From the NCBI GenBank assembly GCA_040768135.1, contig JAXGNF010000001.1, forward strand, positions 16,257 through 80,256: a stretch of 64,000 nucleotides of DNA, given 5' to 3'. Shown here in pieces: positions 31,275-61,750 of the stretch (position 1 is its first letter; each line of letters opens with the position of its first letter). The position numbers and the translations under genes were made by a program. This DNA is from Thermoleophilia bacterium (GTDB taxonomy: Bacteria > Actinomycetota > Thermoleophilia > RBG-16-64-13). The notes below the pieces were generated by a model. That model ran no database searches, was not told the DNA's origin, and was given only the letters and a program-made list of their open reading frames with translations.

Positions 31275-31319
31275 CCTCTGATGATTTGCCGGGCCTCTCG
31301 TCCGAGGTCCGGGGGCGGG

Positions 31320-34235: not shown

Positions 34236-34673
34236 CTATAGTTCACGGACGCCGGTCCGTCTACGACCGAGGTCGGCTTTCAGGTCTTCGATGGCCAACC
34301 TCACATCGGTCTCAGGGGGATAAACACGGTCGAAACCCATCCGCCTGAATTTGGCCTCGTCTTCGGGAAAGTTGCGTCTGGACACACCCAGAATGCCCCC
34401 GATATAAAGGATGATGTCCTCCAGGCCGGCCTCGGTGCATTTATCGCGGAAACCCTCGAGGTCCAACTCGGCCATGCCGTAGAGCGAACTGATCATCATG
34501 GCGTCGGCCGCCGTCTCTTGGGCAGCCATGATGAACTCTTCCGGCGGAGTCTGAGCACCTAACTCCACCACCTTGAACCCTGCCTCCCGGAGGGCTCGGG
34601 AGACGATCTTAGTCCCGATGACGTGGGCATCGACTCCGACGGTCCCTGTGATGACGCAGCCTATATGGTCCAT
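34236..34673 (-). CDS. glmS: Glutamate mutase sigma subunit (methylaspartate mutase S chain), cobalamin-binding Rossmann domain
   Basis: DxHxxG motif (GVDAHVIG) and ...SSLYGMAELDLEGFRDKCTEAGL...GG...FRRMGFDRVYPPET... closely match clostridial GlmS/MutS (recalled from memory). Confidence 0.8.
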   Translation of the reverse strand: MDHIGCVITGTVGVDAHVIGTKIVSRALREAGFKVVELGAQTPPEEFIMAAQETAADAMMISSLYGMAELDLEGFRDKCTEAGLEDIILYIGGILGVSRRNFPEDEAKFRRMGFDRVYPPETDVRLAIEDLKADLGRRRTGVREL

Positions 34674-35702: not shown

Positions 35703-38258
35703 CTAACCTACCTCATGCATGGTCCGCTCAACGATCTCGTCCTGCAGCTCGGGCGGTAGGTCGACGAAGTAAGCGCTGTAGCCCCCTACACGGACCAGTA
35801 GGTCCTTATGGGCTGCCGGTTCTTTGCGCGCCTCCACGAGTTCTTCGACACTGTGGATGTTGAACTGGATGTGCCAGCCCCCACGTTTGGTAAAAGTCTT
35901 GATGAGAGAAGACACTTTGCTCAACTTCTCCGGACTGTTAAGCACGGCCTTGGAGAACTTCATGTTGTGGGCTACTCCGGCGCACTCGTACGGGGTCGGG
36001 TACTTGGTGGCCGAGAGGATCAGGGCGGTTGGGCCGTTGACGTCGCCGCCCGGCATGGCTGAGGTGCCGCCATCGTAGATGGGGGTACCGGCATAGCGCC
36101 CGTTGGGCATCGCACCCACGGCTTTTCCCTGTGTCACATGGCCGGCCGCCGCACCCTTGAACAACATGGGTTTCTCGCCGGTGATGGGGTCGGGACGGCT
36201 TTGCAGGATCCCCTGAGTATCCCGGGATAGCCGGACGTACCAGTCGTCCACATAGTCGTCATCGTTGCCGTATTTGGGGGCTTTGAGGCACATCTGACGG
36301 ATATCCTCATGGCCCTCCCAGTTGGCGTCCATGGCGTCCAACAACTGGGCCATGGTGATCTTTTTCTCGTCGAACACCAGGTATTGGACGGCCGCCATGT
36401 AGTCGGCGCAGTCGCAAATGCCTTTGTCGCCCACCCAGGAGGCCTTGCCGATAGGGTAGCGGCAGCCGCCTTCGCGTGAGGCCAACCCGGCCGGGATACA
36501 GTCACGGAAGAGCATGCCGGCGCGTAACCCGCTCATCGGGCTGTTGGCGATCTCGCTGGTCCACCAGATGAAGTAGTGGTCACGCATCTTTTCCGCGAAG
36601 TAATCCTCCTGCTTGAGAAAGGCTTCGTAGAGCTGTTCGATGGATGTGAACGTTCTCGGGTCGCCGGTGTGCAGGCCCACTTGCTTGCCCGTGCGGGGGT
36701 CGAAACCGTCGTGGAGCGTGACTTCCATGACTTTGGCCTGAACAAGGTTGAAGGCTCCAGCCATGTGTTCGGCGCATTCCAAATGGTAGCCGAGGCACCC
36801 GCTTGCACTCCAGTTGCAGGCATCCTCTATGGGCACACCTCGGTCAAGGTAGCGGCGGGTCCCCAACTCGTCGTTCAAGAAGGCAGGATTACCCCCACCG
36901 AACTCGCGGTTGCATTCGAGCGCATGGATGATGAAGTTCTCGTCCTGCTCGTCGTGATAGCGGACGTAAACGGCCGGCTCCGATAGGTGGACCTGAGCCA
37001 TAACCTCGAGGATCATCCAAGAGAGCTCATTGGTGAGATCGTTGCCGTCTTTGTCTCGGCCGCATAGAGTGACGTTGGGCAGTTGGCTACCGGGAGCGGC
37101 GCGGTGCTCGCGCTTGATGGTGACCAAGTTCTCGACTTCGCGGATCTTCAGCCACATGGCGCCTATCAGCTCAGCTGCCTGCTGGCGGGTAAGGTTCCCG
37201 CTCTCGATATCGGCCTTGTAGTACGGGTACCAGAATTGGTCGATCCGTCCGATCCCCACCTCAGCTCTTTCGGGGCTCTCTTTCCAGGCGGCCAGATGCA
37301 TGAAGCGCACCGATTGGACGGCTTCCCAGAAGTTGCGAGGCGGCTCAGCGGGTACATGTTCACATACGTCCGCGATCTTCTCGAGCTCGGCCTTGCGGAC
37401 CGGGTCAGTCGTTGTGGCGGCCATCTCACGGGCCAGAGCGGCATGTCGCTTGGCAAAATTGATTACGGCCTCGAACATGATGACGATGGACTTGAGTAGG
37501 TACCACTTGCGGAGGGCGTTGACGCTCGAGCGGTCCTCCAACGCGCCTTCAGCCTTCATCTTCTCCATCTCGGCCTTGGCCAGACCGATGACGTGCCTGA
37601 AGCCGAGCCTCAACACCTCGCCGGAAAGCATGATCACGCCGCCGCCCATAGCGCCGTAACCCTGGAAGAGGCCCCGGTCGGGGTTCTCACGCACGCCGCG
37701 GCCCTCGAGGATCATCGCGTGGTCGAAGAGGAGGTCGAAGTGCTCTTTGCCGAGCTCTTCTTCAAGGGCCACGTTCACATAGTTGACCGGGTTCATGTGT
37801 TCGACCCAGTATTCGGCGTCGGCTGTAAGCTTCTCCAGATCTTCGGGGTCGATGACCGTCGAGGAGATATCACTCAGCTTGCGGTCGAAACGGCCACTTT
37901 TGCACATGGCCAAGATCTCACGGGGCTTCACAGCGCAAAGGGTGTTGTTGCCGCGGATGAACTTCGTTGACGAGCCTACGATGATCTCGTCGTCGCGAAT
38001 CAGGATGGGACAGTTCTCCATCCTCTTCTCGAACGCCTTGGCCCAGCGGAAGTCGACCGGCATCTGCTCGGTCTCTTTCCAGGATTCGGTGAACAGCAGT
38101 GTGTCGTCTACATAAACCTGTGGAGCGGCGTCTTCCCACTCCTTCTTCAGCTTATTGAGACGATCGGTCATGACGACTACCGATTTGATCTCTTTTGCGG
38201 CGTCCGGGTGGATGGTGCCTTGGATCACGGGGGTGATGTTCGAGGATTCCACTGCCAT
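35703..38258 (-). CDS. Glycyl radical enzyme (pyruvate formate-lyase superfamily) of unknown specificity
   Basis: 851 aa with a C-terminal glycyl-radical motif RVGGYSAYFVDL...Q.EIVERT and a Cys loop ...EDACNWSASGCLGY.... Confidence 0.9.
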   Translation of the reverse strand: MAVESSNITPVIQGTIHPDAAKEIKSVVVMTDRLNKLKKEWEDAAPQVYVDDTLLFTESWKETEQMPVDFRWAKAFEKRMENCPILIRDDEIIVGSSTKFIRGNNTLCAVKPREILAMCKSGRFDRKLSDISSTVIDPEDLEKLTADAEYWVEHMNPVNYVNVALEEELGKEHFDLLFDHAMILEGRGVRENPDRGLFQGYGAMGGGVIMLSGEVLRLGFRHVIGLAKAEMEKMKAEGALEDRSSVNALRKWYLLKSIVIMFEAVINFAKRHAALAREMAATTTDPVRKAELEKIADVCEHVPAEPPRNFWEAVQSVRFMHLAAWKESPERAEVGIGRIDQFWYPYYKADIESGNLTRQQAAELIGAMWLKIREVENLVTIKREHRAAPGSQLPNVTLCGRDKDGNDLTNELSWMILEVMAQVHLSEPAVYVRYHDEQDENFIIHALECNREFGGGNPAFLNDELGTRRYLDRGVPIEDACNWSASGCLGYHLECAEHMAGAFNLVQAKVMEVTLHDGFDPRTGKQVGLHTGDPRTFTSIEQLYEAFLKQEDYFAEKMRDHYFIWWTSEIANSPMSGLRAGMLFRDCIPAGLASREGGCRYPIGKASWVGDKGICDCADYMAAVQYLVFDEKKITMAQLLDAMDANWEGHEDIRQMCLKAPKYGNDDDYVDDWYVRLSRDTQGILQSRPDPITGEKPMLFKGAAAGHVTQGKAVGAMPNGRYAGTPIYDGGTSAMPGGDVNGPTALILSATKYPTPYECAGVAHNMKFSKAVLNSPEKLSKVSSLIKTFTKRGGWHIQFNIHSVEELVEARKEPAAHKDLLVRVGGYSAYFVDLPPELQDEIVERTMHEVG

Positions 38259-38780: not shown

Positions 38781-39620
38781 CTACGGCTGCCCTTCCGGGG
38801 GGCAGAGGCGTTCGTCGGCAAGCCGGTTGATTGCGGCCGCAGAGACATCAACTACTGCGGCTCCGCCATCGACGGGAATGCAGGCCGCCGTCAGAAAGCC
38901 CGCGTCGTCACCGGCGAGGAAGCTGCAGAGGCCCGCCATCTCCCGGGGACTAGACACTCGGCGCAGGGGAATATCGTGTGAGAAGGCTCGGAAAACCTCC
39001 TCCACGTCGATGTTACAGGCTTCCGCGAACGGTGTCATGCCGCTGACAAACATCTCGGTCTTGGTGGCGCCCGGGCACACCACATTGCAGCGTATGTTGT
39101 TCAATCCGAAATCGACGGCCACTTGTTTCGTGAGGCTTATAAGTCCGCCCTTCGACGCACAGTAGGCCGGCAGACCGGGGACTCCTAGCAGCCCGGCCAA
39201 CGAGGAGATATTGATGATGGAGCCTCCCCCAGCTTCGATCATGTGAGGGATGACCGCTTTCATCATCAGGAAGGGCCCGGTGAGGTTTGCGGCCATGACC
39301 CGGTCCCACACAACGGGGTCGAGGTCGACCACGGTGTTCATGGGTTGTTCCATCCCGGCGTTGTTGACAAGGATGTGGAGGCCCTCTCCGAACGACAGAG
39401 CGGTCTCAACCACACGGTCTACGCCACCTGGGTCGGTCACGTCGGCCGCACAGGTCTTAATCTGTTCGACCGGAAGGGCGCCTGCCGTCGCCGCCAGCAT
39501 CTCGGGTCTACGACCTGTGATGCAGACTCTGGCTCCGTCTGATACAAAACGAGCGGCGATGGCTCTCCCGATACCGGTGCCCCCTCCGGTGATGATCGCC
39601 ACCTTGCCGCTCAGACCCAC
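38781..39620 (-). CDS. SDR family oxidoreductase
   Basis: ITGGGTGIGRAIA motif with YxxxK. Confidence 0.8.
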   Translation of the reverse strand: MGLSGKVAIITGGGTGIGRAIAARFVSDGARVCITGRRPEMLAATAGALPVEQIKTCAADVTDPGGVDRVVETALSFGEGLHILVNNAGMEQPMNTVVDLDPVVWDRVMAANLTGPFLMMKAVIPHMIEAGGGSIINISSLAGLLGVPGLPAYCASKGGLISLTKQVAVDFGLNNIRCNVVCPGATKTEMFVSGMTPFAEACNIDVEEVFRAFSHDIPLRRVSSPREMAGLCSFLAGDDAGFLTAACIPVDGGAAVVDVSAAAINRLADERLCPPEGQP

Positions 39621-39708
39621 GCCTTTGCCTCCCGGTTCTCGACCGGTCGAGTCTTCATTGGGTAGCGGGCTTCACGTCTAGACCGGACGGTAATGGTTGT
39701 GGACGGTC

Positions 39709-39984
39709 TCACGAACGCCGTTCGACATGCTCTATATACAAGTCTCCGCCGCGTTGCACTACACGTAGGGTGTCGGGATATAACTTACGCACAGTATTGC
39801 GAAAGCTTGTAAGAGCCGACTTCAGGCTCACGTCTCCCAGTTCGATCTTCACTGCTTTGGTATCCTTATGTTCTTGCAGGAAGAGGTATATCGCCTCAAC
39901 GGTGGCCGTATATTTACTCTTCTTGAGACCCCGTGTTGCCTCCGGAACAATTGCCGGTACGAAGTCAAATGGCTCAGCTGCCAT
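39709..39984 (-). CDS. Hypothetical small protein in a locally lower-GC segment
   Basis: 91-aa ORF; GC is visibly lower across ~39700-40210. Confidence 0.3.
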   Translation of the reverse strand: MAAEPFDFVPAIVPEATRGLKKSKYTATVEAIYLFLQEHKDTKAVKIELGDVSLKSALTSFRNTVRKLYPDTLRVVQRGGDLYIEHVERRS

Positions 39985-40216
39985 TCCTCTCAGCTCCTTT
40001 CGATTGGTCTCCGAGGATCAACTAGATATTCACCTTATTCTATCACTCAGCATGTATCGATATCCGGTCTTAACGACCTACCACCGTGTACGCGACCAGA
40101 TTCTATGATTGCTCTGAGCCATCGGTGAACAGAGGTTAGCCTAGGCTAGACCCAGGCTTACAAACCCCTCGTGCTAAGAGGGCAGGGTAGGGGTGTCGCG
40201 CGGGGGAGACGTTATG

Positions 40217-41668
40217 CTACTTACCCATGTATGCGAGCGCGCTCCTACCGGCGATCCGCCCGGAGTTGAGGGCGAAAGCCGAAGCCAGACCCGAAGAACC
40301 TTTGATCGGATAGCTGTCACCGTACATGCCCCCGACATCGAATCCTCCTGCGTACAAACCGGGGATGACGTCGTCCTTTTTGTCGAGTACTTCCAGCCTA
40401 CCGGTGACTCTTAGGCCGCCCATAGTGCCTAGGAAAACGGTGCGGGCCCGAGTTGCGTAGAACTGGGGGCCGGTCAATGGTCGCAGGTATCGGGGATCCT
40501 TCGCGAAAAGCTCGTCATACCCTTGAGCGCAGTACCGGTTGTATTCGTCCACTGTGGCTGTGAGTGTAGCCGGGTCGATCTCCAGCTGTGAGGCGAGTTC
40601 CGCGAGCGAGTCGGCTGCAAACACCTCGGTGCTCTTGTTGTCTAGCGCCGCCTGTATCTCTCGGCGCAGCTCTGTCAACTTGAAGCCCGGAGGGAAGTCC
40701 ATCCCCACCCCTCTGTCCAAACCTCGCTCCTCCAGACGGTCTATGATCGAATCGTCGAAGATACTGTAGGTGTAGCCGTCGCTCTTGTAACGGCCCTGCG
40801 CGTTGCCGACGGGGGTGTCCCAGAAGGTGATGGCCTCGTCGCAAAACCTTTTGCCGCGGGATGTGACCCACAGGTCGGGTTGCGCTGAGGCCTGCTCCAG
40901 TTGGCAGCCCATGGCGAACTCATCCCCGACCGGAGCAACCCGGAACATTTCGATGGTGCCGACTCCCTCTTCGGCTGCCCCAAGTTCCCAGGCCATCCGC
41001 AGGCCGTCACCGGTCTTGCCGGTGTTACCGACCGGGAAAAGATTGACTCCGAGCTCGTAACCCGTGTAGCGCTTCACCCACTCTTTGTTGTTCGCATATC
41101 CGCCGCTGGCGATCACCACGGCCTTGACGGCCACGTCCATCTCTTCGTCATCGGAGTTGACGATGACGCCGGAGATACGCCCGCCTTCTCTTAAGAGGGC
41201 GACGACCGGCGTCCCCGGCATGAATACCACGCCCTTACTCTTAGCCTTGTCGACCAAAGCCTTCACGACCGCCTCGCCTTTGCCCTTGATGACATGGTAG
41301 GTGAGCGGTGAGTCGGGCATGTTGATCGTGGCGTCGGTGAAGACCACCCCTTGATCCTGCAGCCAGCGGATAGTGGGACCGGACTCGTTGATGATCGCTC
41401 TTACCAAATGAGGGTTAGCCCGCCAGTGGCTGGAGTCCATCGTGGCCTTGAAGCATTGGTCACGGGTATAGTCGACGTAGCGTGCGCGTTGCATGTCGCT
41501 CTCGACGGCGAAGGTACCCTGGAAGAAATTGGAGGTGCCTCCCAGAGATCGCTGTTTCTCAAATACAACGACTTTCGCTCCGCCTTCGGCCAAAGTGAGG
41601 GCGGCCGCCAGACCGGTAGCGCCGGAACCGACGACAGCAACATCGGCGTCTGCAGGTACTTCGCTCAT
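40217..41668 (-). CDS. FAD-dependent oxidoreductase, fumarate reductase/KstD-like flavoprotein family (FAD_binding_2)
   Basis: N-terminal VAVVGSGATGLAAALTLAEGG...E dinucleotide fold and a C-terminal flavoprotein domain; 483 aa. Confidence 0.7.
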   Translation of the reverse strand: MSEVPADADVAVVGSGATGLAAALTLAEGGAKVVVFEKQRSLGGTSNFFQGTFAVESDMQRARYVDYTRDQCFKATMDSSHWRANPHLVRAIINESGPTIRWLQDQGVVFTDATINMPDSPLTYHVIKGKGEAVVKALVDKAKSKGVVFMPGTPVVALLREGGRISGVIVNSDDEEMDVAVKAVVIASGGYANNKEWVKRYTGYELGVNLFPVGNTGKTGDGLRMAWELGAAEEGVGTIEMFRVAPVGDEFAMGCQLEQASAQPDLWVTSRGKRFCDEAITFWDTPVGNAQGRYKSDGYTYSIFDDSIIDRLEERGLDRGVGMDFPPGFKLTELRREIQAALDNKSTEVFAADSLAELASQLEIDPATLTATVDEYNRYCAQGYDELFAKDPRYLRPLTGPQFYATRARTVFLGTMGGLRVTGRLEVLDKKDDVIPGLYAGGFDVGGMYGDSYPIKGSSGLASAFALNSGRIAGRSALAYMGK

Positions 41669-41681
41669 CTAGGCCCCTTTC

Positions 41682-43796
41682 TCAGTAGCTGCCCCAGAAC
41701 TTGACGGTCTTGATTTTGAGCCGTAGGTCGCATTGTAGACAGCGGGCCGACTCGTAGACCGCAGTTTCTTCATCCATACCCAAGACGACCTCGCAGAAGC
41801 CGCCCAAACGCTCTTCGGGCGGTACGCATGTCTCCTGAGCCCGTCTCAAAGCGGCAAAATCCTCATCCGGCCCGAGCCAGGGGTCTGGCTCCGCCTGCGG
41901 GGTCGGCCGCCTGTCGATGCGGCCGCTGCCTCCCAAGAATTTGTCCACCGCTATCGCCGCCTGTCTTCCCGAAGCGATCGCCTTGATCGCCGACGCGGTG
42001 CCCGACACCGCGTCTCCCGCGGCGAACACTCCCTCTCGGCTCGTTGACCCGGTGAAGGGGTCCACCTCGAGAAGACCGCCGTCCGTCTTGTCCAGGTCGA
42101 AGTCAACGGGTGCATCCGGTCGCTGGCCCACGGCGAAGATGACGGTGTCGGCGGCAACGACATGGGTCGAATCCTCGACCGTAGTGATCTGCGGCAGGCC
42201 ATCGTCGTCGAAGCAGAAGTTCTCCACATTGAGGAACTCCACGCCGGAGACCCTGCCGTCGTTGGTCAGGATGCGCGTAGAGGTATGCGATGGCGCAATG
42301 GATATTCCCTCGTCTTCACCTTGCTCGATCTCGTCGGCGCCGGCGGGCATGTCAGGCCTGCATTCGAGACAAGCAATGAGCACTTCTTTCGCTCCCAAGC
42401 GGCGGGCTACACGGGCGCAATCGAAGGCCACGTTGCCACCGCCAAGAACGACGACCCGCTCTCCCACATCAGGATGGTCGCCCATGTTCACCGCTCGCAG
42501 GAGGTCTACACCGACGAGGGTTCCCTTGCTGTTCGCACCGGGGATGCGCAGCTTCTGACCTTTGTGTGCTCCGATGGCGACAACTACTGCGTCGTAGCCG
42601 TCCCGGAAAAGCCCGTCGATCGAGTCCACCGGAGTCCCGGTTCTTATGATTACCCCGGCGGCCTCGATGTCATCGATCTCAGTCTCGAGCACGGCTCGTG
42701 GAAGCCGGTACTCAGGAACACCGTAGCGTAGCATCCCTCCCGCTTCGGGGAGAGGCTCGAAAACGGTCACGGCGTGGCCTTGGAGACAGAGGTAATAGGC
42801 GGCGCTGAGCCCCGCCGGTCCAGAGCCGAGCACGGCCACCTTCTTCTCCGAAGGAGGTGCGGGGGTTGCGCTCTCTCTCCATGTGCCGGTTGAATCGTGC
42901 TCAGCAGCGAAGCGTTTGAGTTCTCGGATAGATATCGGATCATTTATTTCGCCTCGGCGGCACACCGTTTCACAGGGATGGTCGCAGATATAGCCGAGCA
43001 CTCCGGGGAAGGGGACCTTCTCGCGGATTACGGCGACGGCCCTGGCGTAATCGCCCTCCTTGACGGCGCGGATGTATCGAGGGACGTCGATTTCGGCTGG
43101 GCAGGTGCTCCTGCAGGGCACGAGAACGGCTTTGCGGTTCTGGTTCTGTAGCAACTCCTCTTTGTCTTGGATGGCGCCGGTGGGGCACACTTCGGCGCAG
43201 GCCCCGCAAAAACGGCATCCTGAGTCGGCCAGCGCTTCATTCTCAGGCGTCGAGATATACATCTCGCCTTGTCGTTTCTTGTAATAGAGGACACCCACCC
43301 CGCGCAGGTCAGAGCAGGCTCGGACGCAACGCCCGCAGAGTACGCACTTGTTAGGGTCATAGACAAAGAGCGGATCACTGCTCCTTAAGGGAAGGAGCCT
43401 CGGGTGTCGCTTGACGCGCAGCTCTTCTACGCCGAGGTACTGCTTCAGCGACTGGAGTTCGCAGTTGAGATACTTCTGGCAACTCCCGCACTCGGGCGGG
43501 TGTCCGACAAGGAGCAGTTCCATGGCGAGCCGCCGCAGCCGCGTGATTTGGTCCGATTGGGTGCGAACCACCATCCCCTCGGCTACCAGTGTGGCGCACG
43601 ACGCGGTCACGCCTTTGACGCCGTCGACCTCCACTATGCACAACCGGCAGCCACCCCCGGGAGGCAGATCCGGATGGTGGCAGAGGTGGGGCACGTAGAT
43701 CCCGGCTTCCAGGGCCGCGTCGAGGATGCTCGTGCCGGCCGGGACGGTCAGGTCATTGCCGTCGATGGCGAAGGTGATGGTGCTCGAGTCGGTCAT
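41682..43796 (-). CDS. Fe-S flavoprotein: [2Fe-2S]/[4Fe-4S] HydA/NuoG-N-terminus-like domains fused to a GltD-like (glutamate synthase small chain/NfnB-like) FAD/NAD(P)H oxidoreductase
   Basis: Has CHHPDLPPGGGCRLC and the 4Fe-4S motifs CVLCGRCVRAC and CRFCGACAEVCP. The GltD-like Fe-S region is followed by a VAVLGSGPAG...AAGD Rossmann domain. Confidence 0.75.
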   Translation of the reverse strand: MTDSSTITFAIDGNDLTVPAGTSILDAALEAGIYVPHLCHHPDLPPGGGCRLCIVEVDGVKGVTASCATLVAEGMVVRTQSDQITRLRRLAMELLLVGHPPECGSCQKYLNCELQSLKQYLGVEELRVKRHPRLLPLRSSDPLFVYDPNKCVLCGRCVRACSDLRGVGVLYYKKRQGEMYISTPENEALADSGCRFCGACAEVCPTGAIQDKEELLQNQNRKAVLVPCRSTCPAEIDVPRYIRAVKEGDYARAVAVIREKVPFPGVLGYICDHPCETVCRRGEINDPISIRELKRFAAEHDSTGTWRESATPAPPSEKKVAVLGSGPAGLSAAYYLCLQGHAVTVFEPLPEAGGMLRYGVPEYRLPRAVLETEIDDIEAAGVIIRTGTPVDSIDGLFRDGYDAVVVAIGAHKGQKLRIPGANSKGTLVGVDLLRAVNMGDHPDVGERVVVLGGGNVAFDCARVARRLGAKEVLIACLECRPDMPAGADEIEQGEDEGISIAPSHTSTRILTNDGRVSGVEFLNVENFCFDDDGLPQITTVEDSTHVVAADTVIFAVGQRPDAPVDFDLDKTDGGLLEVDPFTGSTSREGVFAAGDAVSGTASAIKAIASGRQAAIAVDKFLGGSGRIDRRPTPQAEPDPWLGPDEDFAALRRAQETCVPPEERLGGFCEVVLGMDEETAVYESARCLQCDLRLKIKTVKFWGSY

Positions 43797-44962
43797 GCGC
43801 CTCCCTCCGCATGTGGTCCACCCTCGACATCAGGGCGGAAGTCCTCTGGGAACAGCTTGAGAGCGCTCAACACCGGGATGGAGGCATTCCGTCCTATACC
43901 ACAGATACTGCTCATCAGCATGGCTTCGGCAAGCTCTTGCAGCAATTCGAATTGTTCGTCGGTCGCGTCTCTTTCGGCCAAGTCCTTCAAAACCTCAAGC
44001 AGTTGCCTGGATCCTTCGCGACAGAAAACACACACACCGCACGACTGGTCGTGTAAGTACGCGGTTGCGCGCATAGCCATGTCGAGGGCAGATCGGTGCC
44101 CCCGAAAGACTTGAAGACCCCAGGAGCCGACGGCAGGTGCTCCTTGGTCGTGGTCCTCGTAGGAGATGGGGAGATGGAGGTCCTCTCCGCTCAAGAAGGG
44201 ACCTGAGGCACCGCCGGATTGCACCGCTTTGAGGTCTAAGTCGCCCACCGGCCGGCCTTCTGCCTGCTCGAGTACGGAGGCGATGGTAGTTCCCAATGGC
44301 ACTTCTAGGATGCACGGGTGGGCTACGTCCCCGTGGACCGCGACGATCCTGGTCATCCCGCGTGTGGTGGATTCTCCTGAGGGATGGTCTCCAAAGATCT
44401 CCCCTAAAGCGGCTACCGTCTCGATGCTCACAACGAGAGTAGGTGCTCCATGGACTCCTCGCACGTCTGCGTCGTCGCGGAGGTAGGGGAGTGGTTGTCT
44501 GTTCTCCAGCGAGCGGATGAGGGCGGTGTCTTCGGCGGCCACGAGGGAAGTAGGAACCCTCTGCGTCGAGAGGCTGCAGTCGAACCGTGCCTCGTTTCCT
44601 TCACTCCAAGAAAAGCCGTGTCGCCGCCTCTGTTCAAACGCGCGGTCAAGAGCCGCTATCTCGTCCGTATACTCGGTGTTCACGCACACGGAGCACTGGG
44701 TGGCACCCATCGCGTAGGCGGCAAGGAACAATCCGTCCAACACCATCTCGGGTCGACTGTTGAGCAGGAATTTAGCGATGGGTACCCGCCTGTCACCATC
44801 CACTGCGTTGCAGACGAGATGCTTGGTTTGTCCTTCGGCCTCGCGGCAGCTCTGCAATCGGGATACGAGTGAGCGACCGGCGCCTCTCCCTGCTAATGGC
44901 TCAACCTCACGCAATCGTATGATGATGTCCTCTGGACTCAGCTTCAAAGCACGTCCGTTCAC
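43793..44962 (-). CDS. NuoF-like (complex I 51 kDa family) protein with divergent nucleotide/FMN motifs
   Basis: Conserved C-terminal [4Fe-4S] motif SCGVCVFCREG....SICGIG. The N-terminal GRGAGRS loop is diverged from the canonical Gly-rich NADH motif (canonical sequence recalled from memory). Confidence 0.65.
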   Translation of the reverse strand: MNGRALKLSPEDIIIRLREVEPLAGRGAGRSLVSRLQSCREAEGQTKHLVCNAVDGDRRVPIAKFLLNSRPEMVLDGLFLAAYAMGATQCSVCVNTEYTDEIAALDRAFEQRRRHGFSWSEGNEARFDCSLSTQRVPTSLVAAEDTALIRSLENRQPLPYLRDDADVRGVHGAPTLVVSIETVAALGEIFGDHPSGESTTRGMTRIVAVHGDVAHPCILEVPLGTTIASVLEQAEGRPVGDLDLKAVQSGGASGPFLSGEDLHLPISYEDHDQGAPAVGSWGLQVFRGHRSALDMAMRATAYLHDQSCGVCVFCREGSRQLLEVLKDLAERDATDEQFELLQELAEAMLMSSICGIGRNASIPVLSALKLFPEDFRPDVEGGPHAEGGA

Positions 44963-46350
44963 AACTGCGGCTTAGGGGCCAAGCGGGGTATCTTCTCTAC
45001 GTCGACTTGGTCGTTGCGTTCGACTTGAAGGTAGGGGAAGCGGGCTACTGTTGCACGGATCTCCTTTTGCCGCCACCCGGGAGTACCCCAGACTACGACA
45101 ATCTCGGTGCCGATTCGGGCCAGATCCCTCTCAACGAAACCAAGGGAGATCATGCGCCGGTAGGTCTGACTCACGGCGCGGCCCGACGAGAAGCCTACCT
45201 CGCGGTCGTTCTTCATCACCTTGTCCGCATGGTAGGTGAAGGCGCGGATCTCGCCGGTCTTCTGATCAAGAGTGCCCGGGTCGTAGCGGATGTCGTTGGG
45301 CCGGTCGGAGATAGGCTCATACGGTTCCTCGTCACGGAACTGCGAAGCGTATACGTCGGCTACGTCTTCGGTGTTCCATTCGAGGGTGACGACCGTGCGC
45401 CGCGGTGCCTTAGCCATCTCTTGGAGGGCCTCTTTGCCGACGAAATCATGGTCCCATTTGATGCGGTTCTCCCAGCCCGTATCGAACGGGGTGACGTATC
45501 GTGCCTGGATGTCGTCACCCATGCTCCCAAAGAGACGCGGCCGGTAATGCATCCAGCCGGCACCAGGGCGGGCGTCTAAGTACGCTGCGAAGCCGGCGTC
45601 TTCGTACCAGGGATACGGGAAGTGGTAGTTGGCCTGGGGGAAGCCGTCTTCCGTGTGGTTGAGCATATACGCGATTTGGCCCAGCTTCTGCAAACCGTAG
45701 CTCCGGCCCGCATCCCAGATGGCGTTGTAGACGCTTTGGCCGTCGGCGACGTCACCGTGCACCTCGTAGGCGAGCGACCCGGCCATACCTAAACGGAAGA
45801 TTCGCACCGTGGCGCTTCCGATCCTCGCCGGGCGGTGGCGTCCGAACGCGATGTCGTGAAGATCGGCGTCTGCCGCCCGCTCCAAGATCTCCAAAGAACG
45901 GGGTCCCGCTACCTGGAATAGAAAACGTTTGCCTGTCAGGTCTTCGCCCGCCGCGTCGTAGGAGCCCATAGAGAGTGCATAGTCAACGTATTGTCCGAGC
46001 CAGCAAGTGTAGAACTCGTCCTCGGCAAACCGCATTATCACACCGTCGATCATGATTCGGCCCAGCGTATCGCAGGCAATACCATGCCGGAACCCGCCCA
46101 CCGGCATGTTGGAGAAGTCATTGACGAAGTGCTCGCTGAAGAAGCGTTCAGCGTCGGGGCCTCTCACCACGTACATGGGGCCCCACGTTATTGCCGCTCC
46201 GAGATAGGCGCTGTTCTTCCACGATTGTGACTCAACGCGCCAGCCATCGAACTCCATGGGTCCCAGCAAAGGTCCCAGCATAGCGAAGCCGGTGACGTCA
46301 CCGTGGTAGGGGATGGCCGGGTTGAAGGGGAGCAGAGTGGGCTCATTCAT
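44959..46350 (-). CDS. Aminomethyltransferase (GcvT) family folate-binding protein (LigM/DmdA-like tetrahydrofolate-dependent demethylase family)
   Basis: 463 aa with a GcvT-like domain pattern; 4-nt overlap with the NuoF-like gene. Confidence 0.55.
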   Translation of the reverse strand: MNEPTLLPFNPAIPYHGDVTGFAMLGPLLGPMEFDGWRVESQSWKNSAYLGAAITWGPMYVVRGPDAERFFSEHFVNDFSNMPVGGFRHGIACDTLGRIMIDGVIMRFAEDEFYTCWLGQYVDYALSMGSYDAAGEDLTGKRFLFQVAGPRSLEILERAADADLHDIAFGRHRPARIGSATVRIFRLGMAGSLAYEVHGDVADGQSVYNAIWDAGRSYGLQKLGQIAYMLNHTEDGFPQANYHFPYPWYEDAGFAAYLDARPGAGWMHYRPRLFGSMGDDIQARYVTPFDTGWENRIKWDHDFVGKEALQEMAKAPRRTVVTLEWNTEDVADVYASQFRDEEPYEPISDRPNDIRYDPGTLDQKTGEIRAFTYHADKVMKNDREVGFSSGRAVSQTYRRMISLGFVERDLARIGTEIVVVWGTPGWRQKEIRATVARFPYLQVERNDQVDVEKIPRLAPKPQL

Positions 46351-46399: not shown

Positions 46400-46687
46400 C
46401 TACAGGGCCTGCACCCATTTGCCGATGTCCCCCGGCACGGCCATCAGAGGGTCGATCGCCGCTTCGAGAGTGCGGAAGTGGTCGGTTGAGAGGTGGTAGT
46501 CGAAAGCTTTCTCATCTTCGTAGCGCTCATAGAAGATGAACGTGTCGGGATCGTCTATTGACCGATGCAGGCTATACTCGATCGCCCCCGGGTCCCGCAT
46601 GACCTGAGGTTTCATGACTCGTACGGCCTCAAGAAACTCCTCGACCTTGTCGGCCTGTATTTTGACCTTAGCTGTGACTATCACCAT
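46400..46687 (-). CDS. Antibiotic biosynthesis monooxygenase (ABM) fold protein
   Basis: 95 aa ferredoxin-like ABM pattern (VIVTAKVKIQADKVEEFLEA...FIFYERYEDEKAFDYHLSTDHF). Confidence 0.55.
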   Translation of the reverse strand: MVIVTAKVKIQADKVEEFLEAVRVMKPQVMRDPGAIEYSLHRSIDDPDTFIFYERYEDEKAFDYHLSTDHFRTLEAAIDPLMAVPGDIGKWVQAL

Positions 46688-46755: not shown

Positions 46756-47757
46756 CTACTTAAAATCGATACCGTAGCCCCTTGCATAGAACATGGTGGG
46801 GGCGGGCGTGAGCATCCGCCATACCTCGTCGCATGCTTCTAGGTCCCCAGCGCTTAGGGTCATATCAAGGGAACCGAGGTTCTCTTCCAGTTGGGCGACC
46901 GAGGAGACTCCACAGACGATAGAACTCACCAAAGGATTGGCCAGCATCCAGGCCAGCGAAAACTGAGAGAGACTTCTCTTACCGGCTATCTCTTGCAAGC
47001 GGCTTACTGCCTGGAAGTATCGGGGCTGCCACGTGGACGGATATGGCCTTACCCCCTCTGGCGGCGGTTCGCCTGGGTCGTACGCCAGGTATCGGCCCGA
47101 CAGCATCCCGCCCGCCAACGCTCCCCATACGTTGATGCCGACCCCCTCGGCCTCGCATAGCCTAGTCATCTCTAACTCGGCGTCGCGGGCTACGAGGTTG
47201 TAGACTATCTGGACGCAGTCGATACCCGCTAGGCCCTTTTTGTCTGCATACCACAAAGCTTTGCAGACCTGCCAGGCGTAGTAGTTGGAGAGACCGACAT
47301 AGAGGACCTTGCCCTGCCGGACCAGGTCATCGAGAGCCTCCAACGATTCTTCGAGCGGTGTCTCATAGTCGGGCTCGTGGAGGTAGTAGATGTCTATGTA
47401 GTCGGTCTGCAGACGACGCAGACTCTCATGGATTCCCTCGAAGATATGCTTGCGGCTCAAGCCGCGGTCGTTGGCGCCCGGTCCGGTAATGGCTGCCACT
47501 TTGCTCGCTAGGACGACCGAGGAGCGCCGTCCCCGGAGAGACCGTCCCACTATCTCCTCGGCGGGTCCTCTTTCTGGAGTGTCCCAGCGTTCTTTGCCGT
47601 AGATGTCGGCGGTGTCAATGCAGTTGATGCCGGCAGCAAGGGCTCTGTCGATGATCTTGGCGGCCGTGGGTTCATCCACCTTGTTGCCAAACCACAAGGT
47701 GCCGAGTGTGAGCGCCGACACTTTGAGACCCGACCTGCCCATCCTTCTGTACTGCAT
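46756..47757 (-). CDS. Aldo/keto reductase
   Basis: Starts MQYRRMGRSGLKVSALTLGTLWFG...DTADIYG. Confidence 0.85.
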   Translation of the reverse strand: MQYRRMGRSGLKVSALTLGTLWFGNKVDEPTAAKIIDRALAAGINCIDTADIYGKERWDTPERGPAEEIVGRSLRGRRSSVVLASKVAAITGPGANDRGLSRKHIFEGIHESLRRLQTDYIDIYYLHEPDYETPLEESLEALDDLVRQGKVLYVGLSNYYAWQVCKALWYADKKGLAGIDCVQIVYNLVARDAELEMTRLCEAEGVGINVWGALAGGMLSGRYLAYDPGEPPPEGVRPYPSTWQPRYFQAVSRLQEIAGKRSLSQFSLAWMLANPLVSSIVCGVSSVAQLEENLGSLDMTLSAGDLEACDEVWRMLTPAPTMFYARGYGIDFK

Positions 47758-47813: not shown

Positions 47814-48533
47814 TCACCCTCCCAGATATGCTTTTTTGACGATCTCACTGCATCGCAGGGTCTCCACATCTCCGGCCTGCACTACTCGGCCTACCTCGAG
47901 CACGTAGCCGTGGTCGGCGACACCCAAAGCCAGGTGGGCGTTCTGCTCCACCAAGAGGACACTTATGCCCTCTTTGTTGATCTCGCGGATGACTTCGCCC
48001 ACCTGCTCCACTACGATGGGAGCCAATCCCACTGATGGCTCATCCAGACACAGGATCCGAGGGCGGGCCATCAGTCCTCGTCCGATGGCCACCATCTGTT
48101 GCTCTCCACCCGAGAGGGTGCCGGCGTTCTGCTTCTGGCGCTCTTTGAGACGGGGGAAGAGGGTGTACACGTATTCAAGAGATTGGGCGATTCCCGCTTT
48201 GTCGTTTCGGACAGTGGCCCCCAACTTGAGGTTGGTAAGCACGGAGAGATAAGGGAAGAGTTGACGGCCCTCGGGGACCAATACGATGCCCCTGCGCACG
48301 CGGGCGTAGGTCTCCAGGTGGTCGACGGATTCTCCTTGAAAACGGATCGTACCCGCCTGGATAGGGATCAGACCGGCCAGGGCCCTCAGCACCGTACTCT
48401 TGCCCGCGCCGTTGGCCCCGATCATAGTGACGATTCCGCCCTCGGGCACCTGCAAGGAGACCTCGCTGATCGCCAGCGACTTGCCGTAGTAAACGGTGAT
48501 GTTATCGATCTCAACAAACATAGTCGGTCCCAA
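47814..48533 (-). CDS. ABC transporter ATP-binding protein (LivF-like)
   Basis: Walker A GANGAGKST and LSGGEQQ. Confidence 0.85.
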   Translation of the reverse strand: MGPTMFVEIDNITVYYGKSLAISEVSLQVPEGGIVTMIGANGAGKSTVLRALAGLIPIQAGTIRFQGESVDHLETYARVRRGIVLVPEGRQLFPYLSVLTNLKLGATVRNDKAGIAQSLEYVYTLFPRLKERQKQNAGTLSGGEQQMVAIGRGLMARPRILCLDEPSVGLAPIVVEQVGEVIREINKEGISVLLVEQNAHLALGVADHGYVLEVGRVVQAGDVETLRCSEIVKKAYLGG

Positions 48534-49272
48534 AGTAAGCCGAGATGACCTCAGTATTGGCTCGTACCTCCTCCGGAGGGCCTTCTGTGATTTTCTTGCC
48601 GAAGCTGATCACTACCACCCGGTCGCAGAGGCTGAGAATCTGCATGTTGTGCTCTACGATAAGCACTGTGATGCCGTTGTCCCGCATGCCTCGGATGGCA
48701 TCCAAACTGTATTGGATCTCTCCGGGGTTCATCCCCGCCAGGGGCTCATCCAGGAGCAGCAGGCGGGGTTTGGTGGCCAGAGCCCGAGCGACACCCAGCA
48801 TCTTCTGGTGGCCGTGGGCTAGGTTCTTGGCCAGTTCGGCGGCCTCGTTCGACAGCCCTACCATCGCAAGTATCTCGCGCGCCCTTTCCAGTATGAAGGC
48901 CTCGTTGTGGCGGTACCTCCGGGTGTTGAAGAAGACATCAAAGAAACTAGAGTGTGGATGGAGCTCAAATGATGAGGTCACGTTCTCGAGCACAGTGAAC
49001 TCGTGAAACAAAGGGTTGAGCTGGAAGGTGCGGCCGATACCTAATCTCGCCACTTGGTCGGGCACCTTGCGTGTGATGTCATGACCATCGAACACAACCT
49101 TGCCCTGGGAGGCCGGAAGGACCCCTGTAATAAGGTTGAAGACTGTGCTTTTGCCGGCGCCATTTGGCCCGATGAGGCCTACGATCTCACCCTCAGCCAC
49201 CTGGAGGTCAAAATCGTTCACGGCGGTGAGGCCGCCGAAGTTCTTGGTGAGATGCTCAATCTCCAGAAGCAC
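48511..49272 (-). CDS. ABC transporter ATP-binding protein (LivG-like)
   Basis: N-terminus LLEIEHLTKNFGGLTAVNDFDLQV and Walker A GPNGAGKST. Confidence 0.85.
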   Translation of the reverse strand: MLLEIEHLTKNFGGLTAVNDFDLQVAEGEIVGLIGPNGAGKSTVFNLITGVLPASQGKVVFDGHDITRKVPDQVARLGIGRTFQLNPLFHEFTVLENVTSSFELHPHSSFFDVFFNTRRYRHNEAFILERAREILAMVGLSNEAAELAKNLAHGHQKMLGVARALATKPRLLLLDEPLAGMNPGEIQYSLDAIRGMRDNGITVLIVEHNMQILSLCDRVVVISFGKKITEGPPEEVRANTEVISAYFGTDYVC

Positions 49273-50293
49273 CGGGACTCACCCCTCTCCTACTCAGACC
49301 CGCAATGGCCCGATCTCGGATGAGCTTCACCAAACCCACTATGCCCTCAGGCATGGTGAACGCGATTATCAGCAATATGGCGGCAGTGACATACGGGAGG
49401 TCACCCTTCAAATCCCGGAAGAAGAACTCCGGGATGACGAAAAGAATCCCAACACCCACAGTGGGTCCCCAGAATCCGTTGATCCCTCCCACAAGGACGT
49501 ACATGATTATCCAGAGAGTCGCGCCCAGGCCGTAACTACTCGGAGACGCGACTCCTTGGTAGTGGCAGTAGACGGCGCCCATGAGCCCCGCGAAGAAGCT
49601 CCCGAACGCTACCGCCAGGATGCGGTTGCGTCTTTCTCCGATACCGACACTGGCGGCCACCTCGTGTGATTGTGCCACCGCCTTCATTCTGACGCCTATC
49701 CTACTGAACTCGAACCTGTGCATGCAGATCATGCTGATGATTGTCAGGCCGAGAGCCAGGTAGTAGTAGTACTTGCGATCGCTGAACAGCGGTTCTACTC
49801 CACCAAGCCCTGTACTCATGCCGGTTGTCTTCCCGCCCGCCGTAATAAGATTGATGACCACATAGCCCAGGAAAAGTGTCCCCATCGCATAGTAGATCGT
49901 CCGCAAACGTGCGAATGGGAAAGCCAACGCGGCACCCAGAACCGTTGCGGCAACGGCACCCAGTGGGATGGTCACCCACGGCGACCAATGTAGCCAAACA
50001 GAGGGTATCGCAGCTGTGTAGGCGCCAATACCCATGAAGGCGCCAATGGCTATGTTGAATTGCCCCGATATCGAAACTACCCGCCACGAGCTTGAGATGG
50101 TGACGTAAACGAACGTGAGGATCAAGACGTGCATGTAGTACGAACCAGATATGCCCAACGGGAGCAGTGCGAGCACGATGACCAAGGCTCCCAATACGCT
50201 CAGGCCTGGCCAGTTGCGGGACTTCGCCCGGGGTGTCTCTTCGGCCGTCACGTGTGCCTCGGACGCCGGCCGGGTTTTGATAACCTCATTCAT
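49256..50293 (-). CDS. Branched-chain amino acid ABC transporter permease (LivM-like)
   Basis: Polytopic permease with a LivM-like pattern. Confidence 0.8.
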   Translation of the reverse strand: MNEVIKTRPASEAHVTAEETPRAKSRNWPGLSVLGALVIVLALLPLGISGSYYMHVLILTFVYVTISSSWRVVSISGQFNIAIGAFMGIGAYTAAIPSVWLHWSPWVTIPLGAVAATVLGAALAFPFARLRTIYYAMGTLFLGYVVINLITAGGKTTGMSTGLGGVEPLFSDRKYYYYLALGLTIISMICMHRFEFSRIGVRMKAVAQSHEVAASVGIGERRNRILAVAFGSFFAGLMGAVYCHYQGVASPSSYGLGATLWIIMYVLVGGINGFWGPTVGVGILFVIPEFFFRDLKGDLPYVTAAILLIIAFTMPEGIVGLVKLIRDRAIAGLSRRGVSPGASGD

Positions 50294-51152
50294 GGCCGAA
50301 GAACCCCTGGGGCCGGATAATCAGTAGAGCGAGGACCATGATCGAGGCCAAAGCGTCGACTACCGCTCCATTGAGGACGACCGGTAGTGCCCCATAGAGC
50401 ACGCCCAGCAGACCTCCCACATAGAAGATGCCGTTGAAACTACCCAGTCCTGCCAGAATCACCAACATCAACACCTTGATGAGCGTAACGTCGCCAACGA
50501 ACGGTGTCAGGTTATACAGCGTGCCCATGAACACCCCGCCAATAGCGGCCAGCCCAAAACCGACGGCAACGGCGACGGCCGCGATCTGGCCGAAGCGTAT
50601 GCCCTGCAGGGCCGCGCCCTCCCTATTCTGAGTGACCGCCTGCATCCTGGCTCCCCATCGGGAGCGGTCGACGAACAAAATGATCGCGATGAGAATTACT
50701 ATGCCTATACAGAAGGCCAGGATTCGGTCGGTCTCGACTTTGTAGGGACCGATACCGGTTGTCCCCGGGATAAAGGGTGGTATGGAGAGCGCTCGGGTGC
50801 CCATGAATCGGTTGAAGGTGGTCACCAAGATGGTCGAGAGGGCGATACAGATCATGATGGTGCGATTGAAATCGGCCTTCATAGGTCTGAACAGGAACCT
50901 TTCCACGAGGACTCCGAACGCAGCGGCTGCTAGGACGGTCAGGGGAAAGGCTACGAAACCAGGTAGGCCGAGCTTGACCACCATTAGGTAGCAGCCATAA
51001 GCGGCTGATACGAAAATGGCGCCGTGGGCCAGGTTGAATATGCCCAGCAAGTTGAGGATGAACGCGAATCCCATGCCCATGAGGATGTAGACCACCCCTA
51101 GCAGGACCACGTTGATCACTGTCTGAACTGCAGTTTCCACACTTCCAACCAA
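50286..51152 (-). CDS. Branched-chain amino acid ABC transporter permease (LivH-like)
   Basis: Starts MVGSVETAVQTVINVVLLGVVYIL.... Confidence 0.85.
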   Translation of the reverse strand: MVGSVETAVQTVINVVLLGVVYILMGMGFAFILNLLGIFNLAHGAIFVSAAYGCYLMVVKLGLPGFVAFPLTVLAAAAFGVLVERFLFRPMKADFNRTIMICIALSTILVTTFNRFMGTRALSIPPFIPGTTGIGPYKVETDRILAFCIGIVILIAIILFVDRSRWGARMQAVTQNREGAALQGIRFGQIAAVAVAVGFGLAAIGGVFMGTLYNLTPFVGDVTLIKVLMLVILAGLGSFNGIFYVGGLLGVLYGALPVVLNGAVVDALASIMVLALLIIRPQGFFGHE

Positions 51153-51271
51153 TCAGCTCGATTGTTATTTAATTGAGAGCAAGGAGCCGGCCGGCGTGGT
51201 GCGGGAGCATCCTGCCCCCCCCAGCCGGCTCCTTATGCGTTGTCAAGCGGCCATCGATCGATTGCTCGCGA

Positions 51272-52567: not shown

Positions 52568-52764
52568 CTCTCTCCCTTTCTTTGAAAAACTCTCGTGGTG
52601 AATTTCGGCCGTCACAACGTTGCTGATCATAACGTCCACTTTCCCCGCTCCCTGATACCCCCTTTCACCTGTCCATACGGGGTGACTTGTCCGGTTCCCC
52701 TGTCTATTGTGCGAGGTCCATATCTATGTGCGAACATCCACATGCCGGGCAAGAGCATCTCGTC

Positions 52765-61730: not shown

Positions 61731-61750
61731 CCGCCCGGCTCCTTCGCGCG

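Follow-up and report, generated by a model that had tools for sequence, protein, structure and literature searches.

The stretch analysed here, referred to throughout as the window, comprises 64,000 nucleotides of contig JAXGNF010000001.1 from a Thermoleophilia bacterium and has a G+C content of about 59-60% throughout. At positions 40217-46350 it carries four minus-strand open reading frames (ORFs), which fill the interval exactly, as the first-pass annotation of this DNA had stated, and which encode a GcvT-family protein (P1), a NuoF-like protein (P2), a HydN/GltD fusion (P3) and a FAD_binding_2 flavoprotein (P4). Searches of Pfam and NCBIfam bore out the domain content that had been assigned to all four proteins. 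The genes are as follows:

44959-46350, minus strand: P1, GCV_T, 463 amino acids (ORF and Pfam)
43793-44962, minus strand: P2, Complex1_51K, SLBB and NADH_4Fe-4S, 389 amino acids (ORF and Pfam)
41682-43796, minus strand: P3, Fer2_4, NADH-G_4Fe-4S_3 and two Fer4, then Fer4_20 and Pyr_redox_2, 704 amino acids (Pfam)
40217-41668, minus strand: P4, FAD_binding_2, 483 amino acids (ORF and Pfam)

P1 and P2 share 4 nt (GTGA), as do P2 and P3 (ATGA). The earlier description of all junctions as 4-nt overlaps holds for these two of the three and not for the junction of P3 with P4, which is a 13-nt spacer with a GAAAGGGG ribosome-binding site. A scan for promoters and terminators gave a signal no different from that of shuffled sequence, and no operon boundaries were obtained. 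GenBank contig JAXGIE010000004.1 (assembly GCA_040770985.1; locus L088) matches the window at 99.85% identity, and close relatives are metagenome-assembled genomes (MAGs) with the labels Actinomycetes, Actinomycetota or Thermoleophilia. The L088 copy of the P1 gene lacks 2 nt relative to window positions 45127-45128 and has a frameshifted 458-residue product; the conserved P1 C-terminus is kept in the window version. The host is apparently a strict anaerobe with several further ene-reductase-type genes.

The gene context was approached by two routes. A profile of P1 homologues (A1) was used to scan one genome per species, with 80 loci kept, and all four genes were found together in only four close relatives. 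The second route, searches starting from P2 and P3, revealed the P2-P3-P4 trio at L081, L082, L084, L086/L087, L091, L092 and L093 and on a JGI contig; the trio also recurs at L002 and L080, and the MAGs are labelled Actinomycetota, Dehalococcoidia, Spirochaetes and Syntrophorhabdaceae (four phylum labels). The recurrent order is a NuoF-like gene, a gene for a HydN/GltD fusion of about 703 residues and a gene for a FAD_binding_2 protein of about 482 residues, the last at times in two to three copies. The GcvT gene is absent from L081, L082 and L084, where ABC transporter, aldo/keto reductase and ABM genes precede the trio, and from L086 and L091 (the latter a Spirochaetes MAG); no GcvT gene adjoins the trio in L086/L087 or on the JGI contig, where genes for a short-chain dehydrogenase/reductase (SDR), a SnoaL protein and an old yellow enzyme (OYE) come after it. 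Where a GcvT gene is found its position varies: it is separated from the trio by an SDR gene in L093 (Actinobacteria RBG_16_64_13), lies 8-10 kb away on the contig of a Syntrophorhabdaceae MAG on which L016 and L092 overlap, and is placed before the aldo/keto reductase and ABM genes in L001. The FAD_binding_2 gene stands directly after P3, or one SDR gene away, at every examined locus except L083, and is frequently duplicated at trio loci.

The trio is thus kept without the GcvT gene, and the position of that gene is variable, which suggests that the unit under selection is the trio. In unrelated anaerobes, homologues of P1 also occur next to a tandem of three FAD_binding_2 genes in L015, a Dehalococcoidales MAG, near ene-reductase-type genes on the Syntrophorhabdaceae contig (L016/L092) and, in Acetobacterium malicum (L089), next to an OYE/Pyr_redox_2 gene with ABM and URO-D genes near. 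P1 is most likely accessory to the reductase module, a neighbour in the pathway recruited on more than one occasion and not a subunit, and its repeated recruitment argues for a functional link between P1 and the trio.

Some further features of these loci were recorded. In L015 an ammonium-transporter-family gene (8353-9783) is directly upstream of the P1 homologue and the three FAD_binding_2 genes. L083 (Dehalococcoidales, CP070800.1) encodes at 8001-10546 a 554-residue NuoF-like protein followed by a 301-residue HydN-type Fe-S protein without a GltD domain, and this pair is divergent from an operon for a Succ_DH_flav_C-containing flavoprotein, a small ferredoxin and two CoA-transferases. A conserved ORF of 92 codons without a Pfam match is present in L082 (1473-1751), L084 (1516-1794) and L093 (12931-13209); in L084 and L093 it comes after an additional FAD_binding_2 paralogue, in L082 after an SDR gene.

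P4 matches Pfam FAD_binding_2 with 186 bits, and its nearest curated family is the vinyl phenol reductase VprA (NF053717; 358 bits with a cut-off of 600, aligned over residues 8-478 of 481). Secondary matches are to TcuA, KstD and cyclohexanecarboxylate desaturases; the scores against the flavocytochrome c, TcuA and KstD models are far lower, those of the KstD type about 200 bits beneath VprA. Matches in the PDB are to flavocytochrome c3 fumarate reductases and the urocanate reductase UrdA. Arg274 of P4 (motif G-x-R-F), which is invariant in 17 homologues, aligns to the catalytic arginine of flavocytochrome c3, which we take to be R402. At the positions of the presumed fumarate-carboxylate ligands of that enzyme, H365, H504 and R545, P4 has A/G, F/L and a non-basic residue, and these replacements are conserved within the P4 family. 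P4 as a fumarate reductase was rejected, with the carboxylate ligands absent and only the arginine aligned to R402 kept. No N-terminal signal sequence was found in P4, which suggests that the protein is cytoplasmic. Known soluble relatives reduce fumarate, acrylate, cinnamates, urocanate and vinylphenols, and plant phenolics are among the substrates of fumarate-reductase-like enzymes, as exemplified by VprA and by Ber, which acts on the benzylic ethers of pinoresinol. Soluble FAD_binding_2 reductases require a separate NADH-oxidising input module (bioRxiv 10.1101/2023.03.04.531086). Based on these comparisons P4 is proposed to be a soluble fumarate-reductase-type flavoprotein containing flavin adenine dinucleotide (FAD) and the catalytic, substrate-reducing subunit of the trio.

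P3 consists of a HydA/NuoG-type Fe-S domain (residues 1-215; Pfam matches Fer2_4, NADH-G_4Fe-4S_3 and Fer4_7) and a GltD/NfnA-type domain for FAD and NAD(P)H (residues 225-690; Fer4_20 68 bits, Pyr_redox_2 102 bits), with 463 bits against NCBIfam PRK12771 (cut-off 516); the features of the GltD/NfnA module and of the HydA/NuoG N-terminal Fe-S domain are both present. Invariant across eight orthologues are the [2Fe-2S] ligands C39, C50, C53 and C67, the His-ligated [4Fe-4S] set H99, C103, C106 and C112, two ferredoxin-type [4Fe-4S] sets (C151/154/157/161 and C194/197/200/204) and eight further cysteines in the GltD half. The ligand sets fit one [2Fe-2S] and five [4Fe-4S] clusters, as predicted from the alignment. 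Both dinucleotide motifs, GSGPAG for FAD and GGGNVA for NAD(P)H, are intact. The best PDB matches, at 399-444 bits, are NfnA (9bov_A, 444 bits; 9n5u_A) and StnC (8oh5_C), and NfnL scores 230 bits. The P3 family comprises more than 120 clusters with 61-75% identity, nearly all of 698-727 residues, many of which bear the JGI name 'formate dehydrogenase (NADP+) beta subunit'. P3 appears to hold the only credible pyridine-nucleotide site within the trio and is proposed to be its electron-input subunit.

P2 has the NuoF/HydB core fold, with Complex1_51K, SLBB, NADH_4Fe-4S and the four-Cys site all present. Its AlphaFold2 model (predicted local distance difference test score, pLDDT, 83) superposes on the HydB, NfnB and StnB cores with a TM-score of 0.87. 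The four cysteines of the N3 cluster are invariant in 26 sequences. The NADH_4Fe-4S match reaches 82 bits and that to Complex1_51K only 62. The residues that bind flavin mononucleotide (FMN) and NADH were checked by alignment, and the motifs are eroded: the Gly loop reads GRGAGRS, with a one-residue deletion relative to GRGGAGF, and has pLDDT below 50 in the model (residues 23-27); VPTSLVAAED, with no Cys or Gly, aligns to GAGAFVCGEE; and NADEGDPG and NNVET have become NAVDGDRR and VSIET. At least seven FMN/NADH contact positions are altered, the Gly-loop deletion included, and the earlier description of diverged FMN motifs in P2 (GRGAGRS, and no Cys or Gly in the canonical stretch) agrees with the alignment.

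The missing NuoE-like partner had also been remarked on. A thioredoxin-like 2Fe-2S domain of the NuoE/HydB type was not found in the 64-kb window by tblastn (best E = 0.4), and no NuoE-like domain was found in Pfam scans of the neighbouring window genes or the related loci. The Bfu family is defined by BfuB, with five Fe-S clusters including an N-terminal [2Fe-2S] and two C-terminal [4Fe-4S], and a conserved FMN/NAD(H) site, together with the NuoE-like BfuC (IPR002023) (PMC9304861). P2 has only the N3/B1 four-Cys site and no Fer4 or 2Fe-2S_thioredx match in Pfam, and in the alignment it has neither the thioredoxin-like 2Fe-2S domain at the N-terminus of BfuB nor the two-cluster ferredoxin domain at the C-terminus. 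A Bfu-type bifurcating enzyme was considered for the P2 complex and rejected, because the extra Fe-S domains and BfuC are absent; the FMN/NAD(H) site is also eroded.

The divergence of P2 is graded among its relatives. In alignment A2 relatives of about 550 residues keep GRGGGGY, GEETAL and NNxET, with NADEGDPGAF and GAGAFVC already replaced and an N-terminal domain that has no Cys; the clade of about 390 residues to which P2 belongs has a variable Gly loop, ETAET or VSIET for NNVET and a variable second Glu. Conservation in the P2 clade is 53% in the former FMN domain and 69% in the Fe-S domain, compared with 63% and 61%, respectively, in canonical HydB-type proteins. In the same genomes P2 orthologues are 41-49% identical where those of P3 are 61-75% and those of P4 63-83% identical, and P2 evolves faster than the proteins encoded beside it. 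The NuoF-like gene is missing from L041 (9995-13554), where the GcvT gene abuts the HydN/GltD gene, and is split between two frames in L001 (12797-14126). Both are long-read MAGs, so the frameshift in L001 may be an assembly error; the deletion in L041 is unlikely to be one. P2 has probably retained the fold and one [4Fe-4S] cluster and lost the binding of FMN and NADH.

P1 scores 99 bits against Pfam GCV_T and gives weak matches in this domain to SoxA, dimethylglycine dehydrogenase (DMGDH) and trimethylamine N-oxide (TMAO) demethylase. Its best NCBIfam matches, both full length, are LigM (172 bits, cut-off 580) and DesA (171 bits, cut-off 800), and its best PDB match is LigM (5x1i/5tl4, E = 2e-36), aligned over residues 24-425. 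The LigM-like size noted earlier is confirmed, with 463 residues in P1 and 474-475 in the LigM chains of the PDB. Two candidate identities were rejected. P1 is not an orthologue of LigM or DesA, given scores so far from the cut-offs and an identity to SesA and BrdA that is higher than the roughly 30% to LigM. Nor is it a true glycine-cleavage T protein (TIGR00528 33 bits, cut-off 236; PRK00389 57 bits, cut-off 300), and Pfam scans found no gcvH or gcvP among the window ORFs scanned; a grouping of P1 with true GcvT, named beforehand as an outcome that would refute the first-pass reading, was not observed.

By BLASTP, P1 is about 45% identical to BrdA1 and 40% identical to BrdA2 (both Sphingobium BD3100), about 44% to SesA and 34% to BrdA of Rhodococcus BD7100, values that are lower bounds because the sequences were recovered, with noise, by optical character recognition from the alignment in the supplement of PMC5547118. 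The SesA residues that serve as proton donors (R81, H82, R100, R179 and H225) and those that bind tetrahydrofolate (THF) (D95, E189 and Y221) (PMC5547118) all have counterparts in P1: R81/H82/D95/R100/R179/E189/Y221/H225 align, eight of eight and without gaps, to R87/H88/D101/R106/R185/E195/Y227/H231 at a constant offset of +6. H88, R185, E195 and Y227 are invariant and H231 nearly so in 27 homologues, and the Arg/His set common to P1 and SesA is missing from LigM. The Tyr of P1 that aligns to the catalytic Tyr of LigM, presumably Tyr247 (a literature search gave no confirmation of this name), is invariant. The identity of 44-45% and the eight shared residues place P1 in the SesA/BrdA clan, and it is best placed as a putative THF-dependent transferase of one-carbon (C1) units from aryl methyl ethers or methylenedioxy groups, within the SesA/BrdA/LigM group. 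The chemistry of this group is non-redox C1 transfer, and P1 by its sequence falls outside the amine-oxidase-coupled group.

Taken together, these comparisons make it somewhat probable that P2, P3 and P4 are the three subunits of a cytoplasmic Fe-S flavoenzyme in which NAD(P)H provides the electrons for reducing an organic substrate, with P1 as a separate, accessory THF enzyme. All steps of the mechanism proposed here are drawn from homology. The FAD of the GltD/NfnA-like half of P3 would oxidise NAD(P)H and pass single electrons through the two GltD-type [4Fe-4S] clusters of P3 and onward via the HydA/NuoG-type chain, which would consist of two ferredoxin-type [4Fe-4S], one His-ligated [4Fe-4S] and one [2Fe-2S] cluster. 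The N-terminal chain would then deliver electrons to the FAD of P4, in the role that FrdB has for FrdA, and this FAD would donate a hydride to the substrate while Arg274 protonates it. The most likely target is a C=C bond, or a benzylic ether, in a phenolic of plant origin that has no carboxylate pair like that of fumarate. P2 would be what remains of the NuoF/BfuB subunit that an Nfn/Stn-type ancestor possessed, serving as a scaffold or side relay and dispensable in one lineage, and P1 would act on the same substrate class, exposing a catechol, its gene having been recruited into the cluster in some lineages. The reductive direction is suggested by the gap of about 300 mV between NAD(P)H and enoate-type acceptors and by the relationship to VprA.

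Several points weigh against this proposal. P4 is well below the VprA cut-off (358 versus 600 bits) and is not an equivalog. The argument for loss of FMN from P2 is drawn from motifs, and the P2 relatives of about 550 residues, with GRGGGGY, GEETAL and NNxET, may still bind it. The case for the catalytic direction comes from thermodynamics and that for co-transcription solely from the overlapping or close spacing of the genes. In addition, the seven predicted Fe-S clusters exceed what a simple wire needs and leave room for a branched or bifurcating path.

Such a path is the basis of an alternative in which NAD(P)H is split, by flavin-based bifurcation, between reduction of the P4 substrate and reduction of ferredoxin via the extra clusters. 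The nearest solved relatives of P2 and P3 are the bifurcating Nfn/Stn/Hyd complexes, and the clusters outnumber those that a wire requires. Other anaerobic enzymes conserve by bifurcation the drop of about 300 mV from NAD(P)H to an enoate-type acceptor. In NfnSL, bifurcation takes place at the GltD-type FAD (PMC12018979). Against this, the BfuBC core is missing (no BfuC/NuoE, no clusters B2-B5, no C-terminal ferredoxin domain and eroded FMN motifs), the GltD part of P3 is nearer to the non-bifurcating NADPH-input subunits NfnA and StnC (399-444 bits) than to NfnL (230 bits), and the cluster has no conserved ferredoxin gene; bifurcation is considered unlikely, and the earlier suggestion of a 'possibly bifurcating' complex is not upheld, as the trio lacks both the cofactors that define Bfu and a NuoE-like subunit. 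In a more speculative form, the trio would be a new class of bifurcating reductase that arose when an Nfn/Stn-type ancestor lost its BfuBC core, and in which the GltD FAD of P3 splits electrons between a phenolic at P4 and ferredoxin by way of the surplus clusters, including that of P2. This version is decidedly unlikely; if true, compounds derived from lignin or lignans would serve strict anaerobes for energy conservation, beside a corrinoid-independent, THF-dependent cleavage of ethers. An oxidative role, in which P4 would desaturate or dehydrogenate its substrate as 3-ketosteroid dehydrogenase or TcuA does and P2 and P3 would remove the electrons, would accommodate the secondary matches of P4 to TcuA, KstD and cyclohexanecarboxylate desaturases and the SDR, SnoaL and 3-beta-HSD-type genes that adjoin the module at some loci. 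This role is quite improbable, given that the only pyridine-nucleotide site is of the low-potential NAD(P)+/NAD(P)H type and NAD(P)+ is a poor acceptor for C-C desaturation, that the best match is the reductase VprA with the KstD type some 200 bits lower, and that the organism is apparently a strict anaerobe with several other ene-reductase-type genes.

A demethylating oxidoreductase that depends on THF had been put forward in the first-pass annotation. Made up of all four proteins, it would be an anaerobic counterpart of dimethylglycine dehydrogenase or sarcosine oxidase in which P4 oxidises an N- or O-methyl group, P1 captures the C1 unit on THF and P2 and P3 pass electrons to NAD(P)+. This proposal is consistent with the translational coupling of P1 and P2 by a 4-nt overlap in the window lineage, with the weak GCV_T matches to SoxA, DMGDH and TMAO demethylase and with the GcvT-like genes near FAD_binding_2 genes in L015 and L016. 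The trio occurs without P1 at at least six other loci and the position of P1 is variable; P1 has SesA-type residues and 44-45% identity to the non-redox SesA and BrdA; the known folate-coupled oxidases carry flavoproteins of the DAO family and not FAD_binding_2; and reduction of NAD(P)+ by C-H oxidation at such a flavin is thermodynamically unfavourable. These findings make a four-protein demethylase very improbable. Least probable of all is a stand-alone Nfn/Stn-like transhydrogenase or NADPH:ferredoxin oxidoreductase made of P2 and P3, with P4 a mere neighbour. The best PDB matches are indeed transhydrogenases, and L083 has the NuoF-like gene paired with a HydN-only gene and no FAD_binding_2 gene on the same strand, but at all other examined loci FAD_binding_2 follows P3 directly or one SDR gene off, and P2 has no credible NADH/FMN site, so that the second nucleotide site such an enzyme needs is missing. 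An enoate-type reductase coupled to pyridine nucleotides, which had also been offered at the outset, is the reading that the evidence favours; of the earlier interpretation as a whole this branch is supported, and the demethylating oxidoreductase and bifurcation are not.

The genes around the module include the following:

46400-46687, minus strand: ABM-domain protein, 95 amino acids (Pfam ABM, 76 bits)
46756-47757, minus strand: aldo/keto reductase, 333 amino acids (Pfam Aldo_ket_red, 243 bits)
47814-52639, minus strand: LIV-type ABC transporter, consisting of a binding protein, two permeases and two ATPases (Pfam)
38781-39620, minus strand: SDR, downstream of P4 (Pfam)
35703-38258, minus strand: glycyl radical enzyme, 851 amino acids (Pfam)
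34708-35619, minus strand: glycyl radical enzyme activase (Pfam)

Several of these genes travel with the module. The ABM gene is immediately upstream of it at most of the related loci (L081, L082, L084, L085, L088 and L093) and beside FAD_binding_2 in L092. The aldo/keto reductase gene is conserved upstream of ABM and syntenic in L001, L002, L080-L084 and L093, and the transporter in L001, L002, L041, L080-L084 and L093. The transporter is the probable uptake system of the cluster; its binding protein was considered as a CouP-like binder of aromatic acids, but its PDB matches, to binders of urea and branched-chain amino acids, are weak and uninformative. The glycyl radical enzyme co-occurs with the module in L002, L041, L080, L084, L091 (the Spirochaetes MAG) and L093, and in Actinomycetota MAGs it recurs there together with its activase. 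It is below every NCBIfam cut-off, and its best matches, sulfopropanediol dehydratase, HypD and indoleacetate decarboxylase, each reach about half of theirs. As a guess, the co-travelling genes (transporter, aldo/keto reductase, ABM, SDRs, OYE/Pyr_redox_2, glycyl radical enzyme with its activase, and P1) could encode a multi-step anaerobic pathway for a methoxylated or methylenedioxy plant aromatic with a reducible side chain, and phenylpropanoids and lignans may be suggested, equally as a guess, as its substrates.

Other features of the window were noted. The gap of about 600 nt between P4 and the SDR gene (39621-40216) contains a 91-codon ORF (39709-39984, minus strand) with a strong ribosome-binding site and no Pfam match. 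Glutamate-mutase-like B12 genes, all on the minus strand, are split, with MutE at 52765-54225 separated by about 18 kb of the catabolic cluster from a MutS-like B12-binding protein (34236-34673) and MutL (32759-34204), and the same flanking arrangement is found in L041 and L080. Four consecutive minus-strand ORFs of 155-170 codons at 30795-32775, with no Pfam match at E <= 1e-5, form two paralogous pairs; o1 and o2 are 37% identical and have HxH..E motifs that look cupin-like, and o3 and o4 are 36% identical. There are three paralogous genes for tungsten-type aldehyde:ferredoxin oxidoreductases (23140-25011, 26754-28649 and 54380-56272), two OYE/Pyr_redox_2 enoate-reductase-like genes (18932-20968 and 28659-30761) and at least five SDR genes. 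A 455-residue protein (21384-22751, minus strand) has a URO-D domain confined to its C-terminal half. Methyltransferases of corrinoid-dependent O-demethylation typically have this domain, and URO-D genes are also found close to the module in L086 and, in A. malicum (L089), close to the P1 homologue. The minus-strand region 56372-63169 encodes an acetone-carboxylase/hydantoinase-like A and B pair (57232-61730), a 389-residue SDR with an N-terminal extension, whose ORF overlaps the preceding gene, and an MmgE/PrpD-family protein, and an IclR-type regulator is encoded at 63205-63894.

Literature searches returned nothing specific on a three-subunit architecture of NuoF-like, HydN-GltD and FAD_binding_2 proteins. 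The chemistry of the trio is probably conventional and the kind of catalytic flavoprotein already known; what is new is most likely the electron-input module, which would provide a FAD_binding_2 reductase with a unit derived from Nfn/Stn-type enzymes and containing a decaying NuoF subunit. Soluble fumarate-reductase-like flavoproteins reduce many dietary and plant compounds, and here the same kind of flavoprotein is apparently fed by a separate Fe-S/GltD subunit. The states of the NuoF-like protein (about 550 residues with most FMN motifs, about 390 residues and eroded, and lost in one genome) amount to a natural experiment, and the series bears on the re-use and subsequent decay of modules of complex I and bifurcating enzymes. 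The trio is well conserved in MAGs assigned to uncultured anaerobes of the four groups named above, and it may also mark an undescribed anaerobic route for methoxylated and methylenedioxy plant aromatics in which ether cleavage depends on folate and not on corrinoids.

The closest known systems to P2 and P3 are NfnABC and StnABC (9bov, 9n5u, 8oh5), which have the same pairing of a NuoF/HydB-like with a GltD/HydA-NuoG-type subunit and provide the best matches of both proteins. Unlike these complexes, the trio has no NuoE/BfuC, its P2 is a core of about 390 residues without the N-terminal 2Fe-2S and the C-terminal two [4Fe-4S], the Fe-S domain precedes the GltD part in P3 and follows it in NfnA and StnC, and a FAD_binding_2 catalytic subunit is added. 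P1 is similar over its full length to SesA, the sesamin demethylenase of Sinomonas, and to the berberine demethylenases BrdA1 and BrdA2 of Sphingobium BD3100 (about 44-45% identity to SesA and BrdA1), whose hosts are aerobes, whereas P1 is encoded in a catabolic cluster of an apparently strict anaerobe. LigM and DesA, the THF-dependent vanillate and syringate O-demethylases, are its best curated-family and PDB matches, but at about 30% identity and with scores under the cut-offs.

P4 shares its fold and active-site Arg with VprA, HcrB of Lactiplantibacillus, the NADH:fumarate reductase of Klebsiella, the acrylate and cinnamate reductases of Vibrio, flavocytochrome c3 and UrdA of Shewanella and Ber of Eggerthella; these enzymes act reductively on activated C=C bonds or benzylic ethers, among them those of plant phenolics. 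In the known FAD_binding_2 reductases the electrons enter through fused FMN_bind and OYE-like, FAD_binding_6 or NADH:flavin domains, or through haems (bioRxiv 10.1101/2023.03.04.531086), whereas the input of the trio would be a separate Fe-S/GltD subunit with a NuoF remnant. By mechanistic analogy the arrangement may be likened to FrdAB and SdhAB, in which a FAD_binding_2 flavoprotein is likewise fed by a 2Fe-2S ferredoxin fold followed by [4Fe-4S]; by contrast, the Fe-S protein P3 is not homologous to FrdB, there is neither a membrane anchor nor a quinone, and the donor would be NAD(P)H.

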